In this document: piece by piece, positions 3,073-10,942 of the stretch | Layout: every line of letters starts with the position of its first letter | Numbering within the stretch: position 1 is the first letter of the stretch | IMG/VR virus record: IMGVR_UViG_2778261459_000006 | Direction: 5' to 3' (one strand) | DNA from: a virus | Taxonomy: Duplodnaviria > Heunggongvirae > Uroviricota > Caudoviricetes | DNA: 10,942 nucleotides | The notes under the pieces: model-generated | The model's database searches: none | Told to the model about the DNA's origin: nothing | The model's input: only the letters and a program-made list of their open reading frames with translations | Position numbers and translations under genes: made by a program

Positions 3073-3693
3073 ATGCGCATATCAAAGCAGCAACGCCAAA
3101 TCCTCGACTATCTGGCAGAAAACGAATCAATCACAGCACGCCAGGCGGCAGATCTCGTTTATGGCGGCAACGTTACCCGCGTACAGGTCGATGCAGCCCG
3201 CCGTTCACTGATGGCGCTGGTCAGCAATGGGCTAATCATGAAACAAGGCCGCGCTTTCGTAGCTGAAAGACATATCAATCACGCTTATAGCCAGGACGTT
3301 GAAGAGTTGCGCCGTCAGATCCTTTGGGTATTCAGCAAAGAGGGGCAGGACTATCTCATTTCTGAGCGTCCAAATTACGCCGCCAAAGAGTTAACAGTAA
3401 GCGGATTGTCGTGCGCACTGGATTATCTTGTCGGTGAAGGTTGCGTTACTTACAAGCAGCTATGGCACGCCCTGAACACGCTTGTAGAAGATGGTTTACT
3501 CATTGCCACGCGTGAGAATATCGAATACTGGATAATGCCGCGTTCAGGTCGCCGCAATCATGCGCGGTATATTTCAGGCAACAAATACAGAACGCCTGAC
3601 TTTAATCCGACACAGGAAGATCGGGACCGTGCCGAAATGATGTGCAGGGAACGGGAGAAAAGATTCATGGACAAGTTGTTTTCGATGCGGTGA
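3073..3693 (+). CDS. 206-aa protein with two tandem winged-helix-like domains; candidate DNA-binding regulator or Rep-like protein
   Basis: ATG at 3073, stop TGA at 3691-3693, then a terminator. Segments QRQILDYLAENESITARQAADLV...LVSNGLIMKQGR and LSCALDYLVGEGCVTYKQLWHALNTLVEDGLLIA each look like a winged helix. Confidence 0.7.
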   Translation: MRISKQQRQILDYLAENESITARQAADLVYGGNVTRVQVDAARRSLMALVSNGLIMKQGRAFVAERHINHAYSQDVEELRRQILWVFSKEGQDYLISERPNYAAKELTVSGLSCALDYLVGEGCVTYKQLWHALNTLVEDGLLIATRENIEYWIMPRSGRRNHARYISGNKYRTPDFNPTQEDRDRAEMMCREREKRFMDKLFSMR

Positions 3694-3699
3694 ACACAA

Positions 3700-3722
3700 G
3701 CGGGCGCAATGCCCGTTTTTCT
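3700..3722 (+). terminator. Rho-independent terminator after the 206-aa gene
   Basis: Stem CGGGC (3701-3705) / GCCCG (3711-3715), loop GCAAT, then TTTTT. Confidence 0.7.
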
Positions 3723-3861
3723 TATCTCATTCCACGCCAGACGAACCAATTTAATCACACCTGAGCAAATGCATAGCCAGAACTTAAGGCCGTCAGAATG
3801 CGTTATATTGCGTTTAAACAGCATCAATTTTTAATTGCTTTTTGATGCGTGAATCGCAGGC

Positions 3862-3890
3862 AAAAAAAATCCCGCGAGTAGCGGCGGGAA
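3862..3890 (-). terminator. Candidate Rho-independent terminator on the minus strand
   Basis: On the minus strand a hairpin (TCCCGC / GCGGGA, 8-nt loop) is followed by a T8 run (complement of the A8 at 3862-3869). No minus-strand ORF is evident, so whatever it terminates would be non-coding or antisense. Confidence 0.45.
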
Positions 3891-4000
3891 ATAGAGACAT
3901 ATCGTTGTAGTTATTAATAGATCACATTTTGAGGCTGAGGATTTGCCTCACTAATATTATCGCGCCGTTACCTTTTAGTCGCAATTGATTGTTTGAAAGA

Positions 4001-4025
4001 GGCTGGATGAATCCGGCCTTTTTTT
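4001..4025 (+). terminator. Rho-independent terminator with no upstream ORF; possible 3' end of a small RNA
   Basis: Stem GGCTGGA (4001-4007) / TCCGGCC (4012-4018) with one G-U pair, loop TGAA, then TTTTTTT (4019-4025). A promoter-like TTGAGG-17-TAATAT lies about 50-70 bp upstream. Confidence 0.6.
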
Positions 4026-4162
4026 CTGGTTGGAGAATCAAAAACAGATAAACGCGGATATAAGTGAGCCATAGTTGTAAAAAACAAACAGACGAGCGAA
4101 AATACTAACATCGGTAAGTGAATCACCCACAGAAAACCGATTATCTTTAAGCCTGGATTTTT

Positions 4163-4194
4163 AGCCCGCTGCCTTACTGGTCGCGGGCTTTTTC
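4163..4194 (+). terminator. Terminator-like hairpin immediately upstream of the RBS of the second alpA-like gene; possible attenuator or sRNA 3' end
   Basis: Stem AGCCCGC (4163-4169) / GCGGGCT (4183-4189), 13-nt loop, then TTTTT; GGAG RBS at 4202-4205 and ATG at 4214. Confidence 0.55.
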
Positions 4195-4213
4195 GTTTAC
4201 AGGAGCCTGAAAG

Positions 4214-4393
4214 ATGAAATCCATTACCCTGAAAGAAGTCTGCAATATTGCAGGCGTTACCCCTGAGACGTATCGGCGCTGGTTAAAAGAAAACTTGCCC
4301 GGTATCCCGTTACCATATACCCCGAAAGGGAAACATCTTCGTTTTTATGAGGACGAAGTGGTCGCCTGGATTAAAGGCCAGCGTGAGGGATAA
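4214..4393 (+). CDS. AlpA/Xis-family small HTH protein, 59 aa; absent from the ORF track
   Basis: AGGAG 8 nt upstream of ATG 4214. Translation is MKSITLKEVCNIAGVTPETYRRWLKENLPGIPLPYTPKGKHLRFYEDEVVAWIKGQREG, a paralog-like pattern of the 557..841 protein (LKEVC / MKDVC ... V-W ... W). Confidence 0.7.
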   Translation: MKSITLKEVCNIAGVTPETYRRWLKENLPGIPLPYTPKGKHLRFYEDEVVAWIKGQREG

Positions 4394-4425
4394 AGCAGTT
4401 TTTTATATTAAGAAGGGATTGGTAA

Positions 4426-5001
4426 ATGAGAAATGAAATCAAATATCAACATATCAAGCGTCTGTGGTGTCTAAAAGATGGCGTTATTTTTACGAGATGG
4501 GGCAATAAGCCTGTTTCTTTCTCCTGTAAAGTAAACGGGCGCCGCTATACAACGATTAAAGTTAACGGAAAATGGCACGCAGTTCTTATTTATGAAGCTA
4601 TTTTTATGCTGTTCCATGACCGCCCAATCGCTGAAGGAAAAGAAATCCACCACAAGGACGGCGATCCAGAAAATAACGCAATTGACAATCTTGTCGAGCT
4701 AACCAGAACGCAGCACAAGAGGATTCATCAATATCAGTGCAACGACCCGCTGCGCGGTATTTGCCTGAATCAAGGCGCATGGGAATTTAAATGGTATGAC
4801 GATAACGGAATATGCCGCAGCCGACGTTTCCACAGTATTAACGAGGCAATAAACTTCCGTGCCGAAATAGAAAAACCTCGCAGAAGAGAATTACGATTGC
4901 TAGGCTTGAACTGTCGTAAAAAATATCGCGGAATTACCGCAAGCCAACTACGCAAAATAAGCCGGAAGCAAAATTCTCGCTTATGGCGCACACACATTTA
5001 A
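4426..5001 (+). CDS. HNH endonuclease with an AP2-like DNA-binding domain, 191 aa
   Basis: HNH signature IHHKDGDPENNAIDNLVELTRTQHKRIH, then an AP2-like segment RGICLNQGAWEFKWYDDNGICRSRRFHSINEAINFRAEI. AAGGGA RBS upstream. Confidence 0.85.
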   Translation: MRNEIKYQHIKRLWCLKDGVIFTRWGNKPVSFSCKVNGRRYTTIKVNGKWHAVLIYEAIFMLFHDRPIAEGKEIHHKDGDPENNAIDNLVELTRTQHKRIHQYQCNDPLRGICLNQGAWEFKWYDDNGICRSRRFHSINEAINFRAEIEKPRRRELRLLGLNCRKKYRGITASQLRKISRKQNSRLWRTHI

Positions 5002-7193: not shown

Positions 7194-9374
7194 ATGGGTG
7201 AACAGGTCGGAAGCCTTCAGATAGATATTGACCTGAAGACAAAAAATTTATTGGTAAGCCAAAACCAGGCTGAAAACGCGCTTGATAATATTGGCAATAA
7301 AATCAGCGGTGTGGAACGCAAAACAAAGACCTTTAACACGCAGTTAACTAAAACATCTGCCGCAGTCAAAAGCAGCCTTTCCCCGGCAATTCGCAACGCA
7401 TCGTTTCAGATCGCGGATTTAGCTACCCAATTGCAGATGGGCGGTAATGCTCTGGCGGCATTTGCCGTTCAGGGCGCACAGTTATTAGCTGGCTTTGGCA
7501 CGATGGGCGCGGTAGCTGGCGCGGTGCTGGCTATAGCTGGCGCTATGGGTGGAAGCCTGGCACAAGGCGCTGATAGTGCAGCCGGATCGGTTGAGTACCT
7601 GGACAAGGCGATCACCAAACTGAACGAGGTCATAGCTGTAAATGAGCAGGGCGTGACGGTGATGACTGATAGTTACGCCAATCTTTCTAAGGTTAACGCT
7701 GAAGTAGCGAAACAGATGCGGAACATGGCTGAAATTCAGGCAATTGCAGCACTGCGTGACCTGAAAGAACAGGCAAGCCAGGCACAGGGGGAAATGTCAT
7801 CATTCTGGCGTAGCTTGCAGGGCGGTAAAGCTGACGCAGCAGCAGCAGCACAGGCACTTGATGACCTGGGAATCACGACCAACGACTATAAAGAAGCGAT
7901 CGCCACACTTAACGCCAATCAGCCGGATACACAGGCGCAGATGGCGACGCTGGCTAAATCCGTGATGTATGTTGGCGAAGAATACGATCTGACCAATCAG
8001 CAAGCCTACGAATTCATCCGGGCGCTGAATAAGGCCGCGACAACGAAAACACCGGAAGCAATGCAGGAGCTATCTGGCTTCATGCAGGTATTGCTACAGG
8101 ACACAGAAAACGGTAACGAGGCATTCAGGGAACTGGCTATCAAATTCGTTGATGCACAAACCAAAGGCGCAATGCTGGAAGACCAACTAAACCGACTGAA
8201 AGGCGCTATCAGTGACGCAGCCACAGAAGCCAGAAACGCCAATTTTACCACTATGCTCAACACCGTCGCCGCACGCCTGGCAGCCATTGAGCAAGGTTGG
8301 GAGGCAGGTGTCAGGATGCAGATGAAAGCCCAGGGCTACACTGAAGAGCAGATCGATGAATATGTGAACATGGAAACGGCGTACAGGGATGCAAAAGCCG
8401 CTTTGGACGAGAAGAACAAGGCCGACCGTGAAGCAATTGCGCTATCCAAACGCCAGGCCGCAGAAGCCGCCCGCAAGGCAAAACAGGAAGAAGCTGAAGC
8501 ACAACGCAAGGCCAAACAGTTAGCGGCGCAGAAAGAACAGGCCGGACGCTTTACGCAGCAGGTGATGACGGAATATCAAACGACCGTGGATCCGGCAACA
8601 GGCCAGGCGTTGAACCCTGCCGCACAAGTGGAAATGCAGGAGCAGCAGAAGAAAACGGCATTAGATAAATACAGGCAGTTGGGTGTTTTGGGTGAGCAGG
8701 AGTATCAGAACACGCTAACAGCCATCCAGAAAACTGCATCAATGCGCCGCCAGCAAATCATCAAAGACGAGGCTGACACGTTATTCAACAATCAGCAGCA
8801 GTTGATCGGCACATTTGGCGATTTCTTCGGTGAACTGTCTGGAGTCATAGCAGACGGCGCGGGTGAGCAAAATGCGGCATATCAAGCGCTATTTGCTGTG
8901 CAGAAGGGGTTTGTATTGGCGTCGGCAGCTTTAAGCCTTCAAAAAGCGCTGGCAGAGGCAAACGCCTTACCTTTCCCGGCTAACCTTCCGGCCTATGCGC
9001 AAGCGATGTCAGCAGGTACGCAGATCATTTCAGCTATTCGTGGAATAGCTTTCGGTGGCGGACGCTACAACGGCGGCGCGGTTGGTGCTGGCAACCTGTA
9101 CCGCGTGGGTGAACACGGTAAGCCTGAGATATTCAAGGCGAACAATGGCAGCCAGTACATGATCCCAGGTGATAACGGTCGCGTGATAAGTAATCGTGAC
9201 ATTGGCGGCGGTGGCGGCGTAACAATCAACAGCCCGATCACCATTAACACTACGAATGGCTTCAGTGATGAAGACTCAAGGCGTCTTGAGGAAGCGATGA
9301 AGCGCGTAGCTATGGGCGTTTGCAGGCAGGAGTCAACCAGACCGGGAGGAATGTTAGCCCCGCGCCGCCGTTAA
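7194..9374 (+). CDS. Phage tail tape measure protein, lambda gpH-like, 726 aa
   Basis: N-terminus MGEQVGSLQIDIDLK, then a Gly/Ala-rich hydrophobic segment (…AAFAVQGAQLLAGFGTMGAVAGAVLAIAGAMGG…), a K/A/E/Q-rich helical region and a glycine-rich C-terminus with GNLYRVGEHGKPEIF. This resembles lambda-H-family proteins by eye. Confidence 0.8.
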   Translation: MGEQVGSLQIDIDLKTKNLLVSQNQAENALDNIGNKISGVERKTKTFNTQLTKTSAAVKSSLSPAIRNASFQIADLATQLQMGGNALAAFAVQGAQLLAGFGTMGAVAGAVLAIAGAMGGSLAQGADSAAGSVEYLDKAITKLNEVIAVNEQGVTVMTDSYANLSKVNAEVAKQMRNMAEIQAIAALRDLKEQASQAQGEMSSFWRSLQGGKADAAAAAQALDDLGITTNDYKEAIATLNANQPDTQAQMATLAKSVMYVGEEYDLTNQQAYEFIRALNKAATTKTPEAMQELSGFMQVLLQDTENGNEAFRELAIKFVDAQTKGAMLEDQLNRLKGAISDAATEARNANFTTMLNTVAARLAAIEQGWEAGVRMQMKAQGYTEEQIDEYVNMETAYRDAKAALDEKNKADREAIALSKRQAAEAARKAKQEEAEAQRKAKQLAAQKEQAGRFTQQVMTEYQTTVDPATGQALNPAAQVEMQEQQKKTALDKYRQLGVLGEQEYQNTLTAIQKTASMRRQQIIKDEADTLFNNQQQLIGTFGDFFGELSGVIADGAGEQNAAYQALFAVQKGFVLASAALSLQKALAEANALPFPANLPAYAQAMSAGTQIISAIRGIAFGGGRYNGGAVGAGNLYRVGEHGKPEIFKANNGSQYMIPGDNGRVISNRDIGGGGGVTINSPITINTTNGFSDEDSRRLEEAMKRVAMGVCRQESTRPGGMLAPRRR

Positions 9375-9636
9375 CCAACTCCCACGCCAGGGGGATAGAC
9401 TGGCGGACCCTTCACGCTCCTACGCAAAAATTCCCTCACAATCGCCCTGTCAATTTTTCAGATTTCACCAGAACGCGCCTGAAACAGCCTTCCCACATCC
9501 TTGATATTCCGTACGCCCTGCTAAAAGCGTGATCTGCGACAAAAATTGTACTTTTTGCCGTTGATTCGGGGTCTGTATGGGAATAATCTCACAATCAAAG
9601 AGAGGTAAGGGTATTTGGGAAATGGAGGAAAGTATC

Positions 9637-10263
9637 ATGGCTAACGCAGCTTATATTCGTGTTTCTACTATCGCTCAGGATACATTGCGCCAACGCGAGG
9701 CTATCGCTAACACTGGCATGAAGTTTGAGAAAATCGTTGAAGAGAAAAGGTCAGGTAAAGACCTCGATCGCCCGGCACTGCGGGAGCTATGCGGCTGGTT
9801 ACGTGAAGGTGACGACCTGTACGTCGCATCAATTGACCGCCTGGGGCGCAAACTGACTGATGTAATGGGCGTGGTTGATGAACTGCGGCAGAAAGGGGTT
9901 CGGGTCCACTTTCTGAAAGAAGGGCAGATCATCGGTGGCGAGATGAACGCGGTTCAGGAGTTCTTTATTCAGCTCATGGCAGCAGCCGCGCAGATGGAAC
10001 GTAGCTTTATGCTTGAACGCCAGAAAGAGGCGAACGAAGCCAGGAGGGCGGCAGGGAAACCGGTTGGGCGTGGGCTGGCACCGAAGATTAAGCAGCAGCT
10101 GCCGTACATCCTCAAGGACATGGAACAACGCAAGGAGTCCATGAGCGACCTTTGCCGCAAATACAAAGTGGCGCGAAGCACAATGTACCGGATCCGCGAC
10201 AACGCCATTCGTGACGGGAAGCTGCCGGAAATTGTGAAGGTCAAAAAGGTCGTCATCAACTAA
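9637..10263 (+). CDS. Small serine recombinase (resolvase/invertase family), 208 aa
   Basis: N-terminal catalytic pattern AYIRVSTIAQ...SGKDLDRPALREL...GDDLYVASIDRLGRKL...GVRVHFL and a C-terminal HTH (ARSTMYRIR). GGAGGA 7 nt upstream of ATG 9637; the ORF-track start at 9577 is probably too far upstream. Confidence 0.9.
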   Translation: MANAAYIRVSTIAQDTLRQREAIANTGMKFEKIVEEKRSGKDLDRPALRELCGWLREGDDLYVASIDRLGRKLTDVMGVVDELRQKGVRVHFLKEGQIIGGEMNAVQEFFIQLMAAAAQMERSFMLERQKEANEARRAAGKPVGRGLAPKIKQQLPYILKDMEQRKESMSDLCRKYKVARSTMYRIRDNAIRDGKLPEIVKVKKVVIN

Positions 10264-10276
10264 CCCACCAAAACAA

Positions 10277-10313
10277 AGGGGACTCAGCAATATCACCGAG
10301 TCCCCTTTTTCTT
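10277..10313 (+). terminator. Rho-independent terminator after the recombinase gene
   Basis: Stem AGGGGACTC (10277-10285) / GAGTCCCCT (10298-10306), 12-nt loop, then TTTTT. Confidence 0.8.
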
Positions 10314-10517: not shown

Positions 10518-10942
10518 ATGTATCAGCCAATGACTTTACCGGATCTGCTATTTGCCGCCGCCGACCGCGCGGGCTATGTCAACAGTAGCGGCAAACTGAA
10601 ACGCAAGGGGTTAGCTGATGCTCTCGGTATCGGTGAGCAGGCGCTTAACAGCTACATGAAAGGTAGCCGGGATGTTAGCACAGAACAACTAAATAACATG
10701 CTGACATTGCTTGGCGTGTACGGCATCGCACCATTCAAGGGCAATCAATGGATGGCGCTGGACGTGGATTATAAAGCGCGTAGCGACGAGATTGTCAGTA
10801 ACAAGATGATTGCGCTGGAACGCGATAACCAGCAAAAGGCACAGCAGATCGCAGCACTGAAAGCTGAGATTGATATGTTGAAAAACCAGTTAAGCAACAA
10901 AATTGATATTGTAGACAAACCGGTTAATCAACAAATCGAGAC
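10518..10942 (+). CDS. 5' part of the junction-spanning XRE-type HTH regulator (continues at 1..408)
   Basis: ATG at 10518; the N-terminus has an HTH pattern (GLADALGIGEQALNSYMKGSRDVSTEQL) followed by a coiled-coil-like segment. The frame runs off the window end and is in phase with 1..408. Confidence 0.7.
   Translation, partial: MYQPMTLPDLLFAAADRAGYVNSSGKLKRKGLADALGIGEQALNSYMKGSRDVSTEQLNNMLTLLGVYGIAPFKGNQWMALDVDYKARSDEIVSNKMIALERDNQQKAQQIAALKAEIDMLKNQLSNKIDIVDKPVNQQIE
10866..10942. repeat. Terminal 77-nt exact duplicate of nt 1-77; circular-contig overlap
   Basis: Direct comparison shows 77 of 77 identical, ending exactly at the window edge. Confidence 0.85.

Follow-up and report, generated by a model that had tools for sequence, protein, structure and literature searches.

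The stretch of DNA considered here (the window; 10,942 nt, IMG/VR record IMGVR_UViG_2778261459_000006) is, to judge by its gene content, a small mosaic satellite-like mobile island of Escherichia coli and Shigella in circular form. Our subject is the 520-bp region at 3694-4213, which lies between the gene for a protein of 206 amino acids (aa) and an operon that begins with the gene for a 59-aa helix-turn-helix (HTH) protein. Within it are a candidate small RNA (sRNA) gene on the minus strand, a candidate operon promoter with its leader on the plus strand, and four hairpin/T-run terminators, as outlined in Table 1. The terminators had been pointed out in an initial annotation of the sequence, and all four do fold where it placed them. 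Each fits the form of an intrinsic terminator, a GC-rich stem-loop with a U-tract directly after it, and transcripts are predicted to end at these sites. Under a strict scan, which accepts hairpins of -9 kcal/mol or lower whose stem closes no more than 2 nt from a tail in which 6 or more of 8 letters are T, the window holds 14 terminators, whereas 20 dinucleotide shuffles gave 7.45 on average and 11 at most; 4 of the 14 fall inside the 520 bp, where ~0.35 would be expected, an excess of about tenfold. The region had also been described as free of open reading frames (ORFs), which is true in the useful sense that the overlapping ORFs of 20-89 aa found in it are not conserved among relatives. 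The alignments contain indels of 2, 6 and 16 nt, which rule out coding, and the ORFs of 41, 52 and 89 aa that were considered as candidate genes were rejected as lacking conservation and broken by indels.

Table 1. Coordinates of the features in and around the gene-free region (window numbering; energies are folding energies)
Feature	Position	Strand	Details
Candidate sRNA gene, ~88 nt	3949->3862	-	promoter, covariance model, terminator
sRNA promoter (sigma-70)	-35 TTGCGA 3984-3979; 17-bp spacer; -10 GATAAT 3961-3956	-	promoter scan
sRNA parts	5' stem-loop 3950-3936; unpaired core 3935-3890; terminator 3889-3870; U8 3869-3862	-	
sRNA terminator	hairpin 3889-3870, then U8 3869-3862	-	-10.7 kcal/mol
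Candidate HTH-operon promoter	-35 TTGTAA 4075-4080; 17 bp; -10 GAAAAT 4098-4103	+	8/12 match
Leader	4110-4213	+	5' hairpin ATCGGT/ACCGAT 4110-4141; terminator-like hairpin 4163-4189; T-run 4190-4198
Leader terminator	hairpin 4163-4189, then TTTTCGTTT	+	~-19 kcal/mol, z -3.0
Terminator of the 206-aa gene	stem-loop 3698-3718, T-run to 3723 (TTTTT)	+	-12.3 kcal/mol, z -3.9
Extra terminator	stem 4001-4018, T7, to 4026	+	-17.1 kcal/mol including A/U extension, z -3.2
Conserved non-coding block	3722-3861 (140 bp)	none	sharp start at CATTCCACGCCAGACGAA (3722)
AlpA/Xis-like HTH protein, 94 aa	557-841	+	profile search
206-aa protein, weak winged-helix signal	3073-3693	+	
59-aa HTH_17/MerR-like protein	4214-4393	+	first operon gene
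HNH endonuclease	4426-5001	+	
726-aa protein matching tail tape-measure families	7194-9374	+	
Resolvase-type serine recombinase	9577-10263	+	

The region was compared across 39 related loci (given L numbers), which together with the window copy make 40 sequences, 22 of them distinct. By its sequence the candidate sRNA gene is an independent, non-coding unit with a promoter and a terminator of its own. The -10 hexamer GATAAT is invariant across 15 distinct promoter variants, and all 15 carry a -35 element, either TTGCGN at 17 bp or TTTGCA at 18 bp; the hexamers are kept although the spacer and the flank beyond diverge, and this across a mosaic junction. Transcription is predicted to start near 3949, ~7 nt past the -10, which places a stem-loop at the 5' end of the RNA. 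The letters of this stem change from variant to variant and still pair, as UGAGG/CCUCA, GAGGAU/AUCCUC, CGAGGG/CCCUCG, AAGGG/CCCUU or AAGGAUU/AAUCCUU. An unpaired core of ~45 nt follows, largely invariant and holding two fully invariant stretches, GUGAUCU and AUAACUACAACGAU. The terminator stem that closes the RNA also shows a compensatory change, from CCCGC/GCGGG to CCAGC/GCUGG. In the window the 3' module reads UAUUU-CCCGC...GCGGGA-U8 (tails of 7-9 U among the variants), and thus has the form seen in Hfq-type sRNAs: a U-rich 5' flank, a terminator hairpin and a long poly-U. The only ORF inside the gene, 28 aa from an ATG at 3900, runs through the terminator, and its ATG is lost in variants that carry an alternative 3' segment. 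As a separate observation, in L012 (~1258-1400) an unrelated stretch of ~100 nt with a GC-rich hairpin of its own replaces the sequence just upstream of the sRNA start; the -10 and -35 would be lost there, and the sRNA body is intact.

A covariance model built from 19 sequences finds the sRNA exactly once in each true locus (40 matches including the window, at 65-114 bits) and has no match in the CPZ-55 locus of E. coli K-12 or in the chance-match loci that were searched. In the model alignment 93.3% of pair cells are standard pairs, as against 35-50% when the partners are slid, counts that rest on an alignment of related sequences fitted to the model and so lean towards structure. Four pairs show compensatory changes, and none of 500 shuffles reaches the covariation score. 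An independent MAFFT/RNAalifold run recovers both helices, with two compensatory pairs. The sRNA is also better conserved than its surroundings, its mean pairwise identity being 81%, while the promoter-leader segment has 63% and the HTH coding sequence 64%.

Of 5,426 complete E. coli genomes, 178 carry the gene, ATCC 8739 among them, each in a single chromosomal copy. When one genome per species was scanned for its pattern, only E. coli and Shigella flexneri had it. Copies in metagenomes come mainly from gut and food samples. Among the matches listed, none has an RNA feature annotated at this position; a few overlap a coding sequence (CDS) for a 'hypothetical protein' and nearly all overlap nothing. 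One such CDS, called by the Prokaryotic Genome Annotation Pipeline (PGAP), is the 89-aa WP_001268866.1 of E. coli CV839-06 (L002 7198-7467), which runs on the plus strand across the sRNA gene. Its ORF is closed in the window and in most variants, so the call is probably spurious; this CDS and a 93-aa call in L006 and L008 were both discarded as coding candidates, being unconserved and broken by indels. Searched against Rfam 15 at E<=1, the window and five variant loci gave no match to the sRNA. The only hits were to REP/naRNA4 and lay outside the island; those at L001 17651-17791 (naRNA4, a REP element) are in the eutH-eutG intergenic region and unrelated to the finding. Full-text searches of the literature found nothing for the sRNA sequence, and nothing relevant for CPZ-55 together with sRNA or satellite. 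Taken from its promoter, covariation and terminator, 3949->3862 on the minus strand appears to be a conserved sRNA gene, previously unannotated and absent from RefSeq annotation, and would represent a new sRNA family. A conserved unpaired core, a U-rich flank and a U8 tail are what is expected of a trans-acting sRNA, and the RNA is probably trans-acting and Hfq-binding.

Between the sRNA gene and the 206-aa gene lies a conserved non-coding block. In contigs that encode an identical 59-aa protein, conservation runs from CATTCCACGCCAGACGAA to the operon irrespective of the gene upstream, which may be the 206-aa gene, a 270-aa gene, a DUF5906 primase or a truncated integrase. Since the block is kept whatever precedes it, it belongs to the downstream operon rather than to the 206-aa gene. 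Its sequence is a mosaic of two haplotypes and is about as conserved as the sRNA (78% mean pairwise identity; leader and HTH CDS, 63-64%). Neither strand yielded a consensus RNA fold, and the block has no conserved ORF or recognisable conserved promoter. This last point matters for an alternative in which the sRNA is a cis-antisense RNA like lambda OOP, pairing with plus-strand read-through across 3862-3949 and thereby guarding the operon. The sRNA is indeed convergent with the upstream genes, a read-through RNA would be perfectly complementary to it, and in most variants no plus-strand terminator stands between the sRNA and the operon. However, the 206-aa gene upstream has a strong terminator of its own, and 3722-3870 yielded no conserved plus-strand promoter, the candidate TTGATG-17-AAAAAT being missing from variants of the L063/L065 type (alignment by eye). 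Nor does antisense action alone call for a strongly conserved core, as any sequence complements its own antisense strand, and we regard a purely cis-acting role as quite unlikely.

The second element of the region is the operon leader. Transcription of the HTH operon is predicted to start near 4110, giving a leader of ~104 nt in the window and of 87-108 nt across variants. The homologous promoter position scores 8-10/12 in every variant (TTGAAC-17-TAAAAT and ATGTCA-17-TATAAT are examples), and the order of promoter, leader, terminator and ATG is the same in all. Each variant leader opens with a small hairpin, as read from the folds. Further along, every variant has a GC-rich hairpin and a run of four or five T, with at least 10 different stem sequences (AGCCCGC/GCGGGCU, GCGGUGAGG/CCUCACCGC, AGCGGCGGUUG/CCAGCCGCCGCU and CCGCCUCCAGG/CCUGGGGGCGG among them) and with the stem ending 19-26 nt before the ATG, 24 nt in the window. 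That the last plus-strand hairpin adjoins the ribosome-binding site, as had been noted earlier, is borne out by an AGGAG Shine-Dalgarno sequence at 4201-4205 and the ATG at 4214 directly after it. The hairpin of the window has the form of a canonical terminator: a GC stem of 7 bp with an inner helix and a loop of 5 nt, and a T-run directly adjoining the stem. Most leader hairpins outside the window have a loop of 12-27 nt and a T-run 2-4 nt after the stem, and would be poor terminators. Most of these long loops have TCCATATTT in common, a hint that the hairpin may serve for recognition and not as a plain terminator.

The long-looped variants raise the question of whether the leader hairpin is in truth a DNA operator, an inverted repeat bound by the variant-specific HTH protein of the gene next to it, for autoregulation or as a packaging site. 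Arms that in most types are 12-27 bp apart and enclose a conserved TCCATATTT, and a T-run that often stands off from the stem, would suit an operator, as would the fact that the stem sequences change together with the type of the neighbouring HTH protein. The fold of the 59-aa protein is of the right kind as well, resembling MerR, BldC and RacA and the DNA-binding domains of small terminases. Against these stand the T4-5 run that follows the repeat in every variant and the canonical terminator form of the window hairpin. In addition, 8 of the 13 leader types have a G.T pair that works only in plus-strand RNA, as G.U, and the plus strand folds better overall (summed energy -206.9 kcal/mol, compared with -192.4 for the minus strand). 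An operator in place of a terminator is in our judgement improbable, and the two roles are not mutually exclusive.

The 59-aa protein is a predicted winged-helix DNA-binding protein. It matches Pfam HTH_17 (5e-8) and MerR_1 (3e-6), as well as an NCBIfam excisionase-family domain at 4e-6, just under the cut-off of that family. Its best sequence match in the Protein Data Bank (PDB) is the N-terminal domain of RppC (E = 0.014). A structure model made from the single sequence is of moderate confidence (predicted local distance difference test score, pLDDT, 71), and its fold matches are RacA, BldC, small-terminase DNA-binding domains, Xis and RppC. A homologue search with the protein returned only its own cluster. 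The initial annotation had called this second operon 'alpA-like', a label that does not suit its first gene: the product is an HTH_17/MerR-like winged helix and not Pfam Phage_AlpA (PF05930). The 94-aa protein encoded further upstream reaches 17.4 bits with PF05930, where the cut-off is 21 bits.

With an sRNA gene and a leader terminator less than 300 bp apart, one model is P4-type immunity, in which a small RNA would base pair with the HTH-operon leader and so bring about premature termination at 4163-4194. The CI RNA of P4 and the C4 immunity RNAs of P1 and P7 are processed from the leader that they control and pair with that leader. The initial annotation had suggested that an analogous RNA switch may be present, with small-RNA candidates ending at the plus-strand hairpins. 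A small RNA gene and a leader terminator do exist, and the comparative data support both, but not as RNAs ending at 4025 or 4194: the sRNA is a minus-strand RNA that ends at the 3862-3890 terminator, so that the probes suggested at that time would miss it. The likeness to P4 CI and C4 is limited to the presence of a small RNA and of predicted premature termination in a satellite or prophage control region. The P4 idea failed on every feature that could be tested, namely Rfam membership, origin, complementarity and co-assortment. The Rfam covariance models gave no C4/CI-type match at E<=1, either to the window or to any of five variant loci, and the sRNA comes from its own divergent promoter on the opposite strand instead of being processed out of the leader. 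The leader is absent from the best RNAduplex partners of the sRNA in the window, L001 and L002, its complementarity does not rise above shuffles, and those best partners are themselves no better than the partners of shuffled cores. Moreover, a near-constant core stands beside leaders that are completely different, with free recombination between sRNA segments and leader types. In the window the sRNA terminator and the leader hairpin do have similar 3' arms, but this holds only for the leader type of the window; other leader stems differ, and the sRNA terminator stays CCCGC/GCGGG. Control of the leader by the sRNA in the P4 manner is therefore a model to which we give very little credence.

Other partners for the sRNA were considered in turn. 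A duplex scan of the island gave no target better than those of shuffled cores. The best site in the window, 4264-4274 (GAGACGTATCG, within the 59-aa gene, -22.9 kcal/mol), is within the range of shuffled cores and, by eye, is not conserved in other variants. Pairing of the leader-loop TCCATATTT with AAAAUGUG of the sRNA (8 bp, one wobble) was rejected by eye, since the loop of the window lacks the motif and the related element pRHB34-C15_2 lacks the sRNA segment. The C/A-rich core gave the idea of a sponge for GcvB, and this too did no better than shuffles. In phage genomes, long complementarity to the sRNA was limited to chance-level matches with E of 1-3. A transcript of the host or of a helper phage is the most economical reading for the target and the most likely one.

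The two remaining terminators need to be read against the mosaic structure of the region. From 3694 to ~3971 the window has 99.6% identity to an island of E. coli EM20-18-50, whereas ~3972 to 4420 has no match in the 5,426 complete E. coli genomes; these alignments show the 520-bp region to be a mosaic junction. Over the final 35 bases of the preceding gene, identity to EM20-18-50 is no more than about three-quarters (a reading of the alignment). The terminator at 3698-3723 is kept in all loci with the 206-aa gene and is missing where another gene precedes. That at 4001-4026 lies between the two divergent promoters and is limited to the variant group of the window (the window itself and L003-L011; in L012 its 5' arm has diverged). 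Other variants lack the larger stretch around it, the alignment to L001 showing gaps that total ~39 nt and diverged flanks, and the hairpin is nearly invariant inside its group, hence uninformative on compensatory change. Short direct repeats link 4000-4054 with 4113-4193 (AGGCTGGAT/AGCCTGGAT and CGGCCTTTTT/CGGGCTTTTT), as does a 27-nt pair of 70% identity, which suggests that the extra terminator may have arisen via partial duplication of the leader. It is probably an insulator against upstream read-through and not an sRNA end, and together with 3698-3723 it would insulate the region from upstream transcription.

A sceptical reader could take the whole region for a collection of gene-end terminators and insulators piled up at a recombination junction, with no discrete RNA made and no regulation. 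The mosaic junction itself, the variant-specific 4001-4026 terminator and a lax terminator scan (17 sites against 13.8 expected from shuffles, thus no enrichment) all fit such a description. What speaks for discrete RNAs is, first, that a minus-strand terminator without a minus-strand gene needs a transcript to act on, and that the -10 invariant among variants and the -35 kept at the right distance are there to supply one. Second, the 5' hairpin of the sRNA has been swapped for different hairpins at the same position, and its unpaired core exceeds the adjacent coding sequence in conservation. Third, the leader hairpin is downstream of a conserved promoter and not at a gene end. A region without regulation is thus, in our estimate, very unlikely.

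The surroundings of the region are those of a small mobile element. The window is contig NNVN01000081.1 of assembly GCA_002485715.1. Its two ends (1-77 and 10866-10942) are identical over 77 nt, so it is a circular assembly of ~10.9 kb. All credible genes are on the plus strand, several small ORFs among them besides the genes named in Table 1. Chromosomal relatives in E. coli occupy the eutB/intZ-eutA interval, which is the CPZ-55 site in K-12. The window carries a resolvase-type serine recombinase instead of the IntZ tyrosine integrase of these relatives. The single plasmid record matched, pRHB34-C15_2 (CP057168.1), was deposited as a circular plasmid of 9,003 bp and is a sister element; like the window, it may represent an excised or episomal form of such a CPZ-55-like island. 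No tRNA genes and no Rfam families were found anywhere in the window, and no phage record matched it at the DNA level. The 726-aa ORF matches tape-measure families of PHROGs (phrog_1538, 3e-100), in an island that has no capsid or other tail genes. Compared with the tape-measure proteins of the siphoviruses listed, mainly of Salmonella and Klebsiella, it shows 30-49% identity in most cases, and 18 records reach 60-80% over part of the protein; the matches are mostly distant, and no helper phage can be named from them. Going by gene content, the tape-measure-like, HNH and TerS-like genes together look like a phage-satellite module for packaging or tail interference. Directly after the recombinase gene, at 10275-10308, there is also a strong bidirectional terminator, with a 15-bp stem and -14 to -20 kcal/mol on both strands.

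Enterobacterial prophages and islands encode trans-acting sRNAs with a Rho-independent terminator, for example DicF of the Qin prophage. The sRNA described here is like this class in being a stand-alone gene in an acquired element with its own sigma-70 promoter, in its length of ~90 nt, and in the order of its parts, where a 5' stem-loop is followed by a conserved stretch without pairing and then by a GC hairpin that has a U-rich flank and ends in U8. It differs in that no Rfam 15 family is related to it by sequence or by covariance model, and in its location divergent from the promoter of a satellite-like operon, which is fixed across variants. The CPZ-55 element of K-12 (intZ, yffL to yffS, between eutB and eutA) shares the site, intZ and a similar small-island layout, but has neither the conserved block nor the sRNA, BLAST and the covariance model both being blank. 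A precedent for an sRNA from a satellite-like island that acts on helper-phage and satellite transcripts is SviR, an sRNA of the Vibrio cholerae PLE satellite that regulates helper genes (bioRxiv 10.1101/2022.04.08.487710); the host, the satellite family and the sequence are different, and the satellite status of the present island is a reading of its genes.

For the leader, the comparison is with promoter-proximal terminators that are bypassed by loaded antiterminators, such as lambda Q at PR'/tR' and AlpA at PalpB/tB (PMC7969949, PMC9371919). AlpA of Pseudomonas aeruginosa binds between the -35 and the -10, at an element GGGACGN5GGTA, and bypasses a terminator just upstream of the first gene (PMC7969949). 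In Gram-negative phage-inducible chromosomal islands (PICIs), AlpA is a helper-induced positive autoregulator (PMC11773190). The layout here is similar: a promoter, a short leader and an intrinsic terminator immediately before the first gene of a lysis/late-type operon, with a small winged-helix protein encoded nearby. Several variants (L001, L002, L018, L071 and L125) also have GGACA-N5-6-G(G/A)TA between the -35 and the -10, which resembles the AlpA-binding element; the spacer of the window (4081-4097, AAAACAAACAGACGAGC) lacks this motif. Unlike in the Q and AlpA systems, the candidate factor is encoded downstream of the terminator, antitermination is predicted from the layout, and neither the 59-aa protein nor six positional homologues match PF05930.

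Our interpretation, held with reasonable though far from complete confidence, is that the region is the control hub of a CPZ-55-like island and combines a minus-strand sRNA with a divergent operon promoter whose leader ends in a terminator. Two back-to-back sigma-70 promoters would fire in opposite directions. The leftward one would give the stand-alone sRNA of ~88 nt, and the rightward one would start the operon for the HTH protein, the HNH endonuclease, the TerS-like protein and the tape-measure-like protein. In the resting state most rightward transcripts would stop at 4163-4198 and leave a short RNA of ~88 nt, and expression of the operon would need an antitermination input. Candidates for this input are the small HTH proteins of the island itself, which would make a positive loop, or a factor of a helper phage; either proposal is drawn from the architecture. 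The sRNA would not act on the leader but would base pair in trans with an RNA of the host or the helper phage. Transcription, termination, antitermination and action in trans are thus predictions, made from the sequence features, conservation and covariation computed here. The combined proposal, that the sRNA belongs to a new E. coli/Shigella satellite-island family acting in trans and that HTH_17 proteins drive positive-feedback antitermination at the leader, is more doubtful, and we think it rather unlikely in this complete form.

Several results weigh against the control hub. The fold energy of the full-length sRNA is unexceptional (z -1.4), its pair counts carry the bias of a fitted alignment, and the scan of the island gave it no target. 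The operon promoter of the window, at 8/12, is weak and went unreported by a standard scan. On the side of termination, the long loops and displaced T-runs of most leaders outside the window would make poor terminators, and the TCCATATTT common to most of these loops points away from a plain terminator. Finally, AlpA is absent both from the PDB sequence matches of the 59-aa protein and from its top 50 fold matches, and the protein and its six homologues, all of which match HTH_17, leave PF05930 unmatched.

The island family is present in ~3% of complete E. coli genomes, and its regulation was previously undescribed. A conserved and unannotated sRNA offers a handle on how these islands talk to their host or to a helper phage, and the 'hypothetical protein' that PGAP calls over its gene can be flagged as probably spurious. 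The leader architecture suggests that the 'positive autoregulation' of AlpA-like regulators in Gram-negative islands may be antitermination rather than activation of initiation. The combined proposal above, if true, would extend AlpA-style antitermination to the control of enterobacterial satellites.

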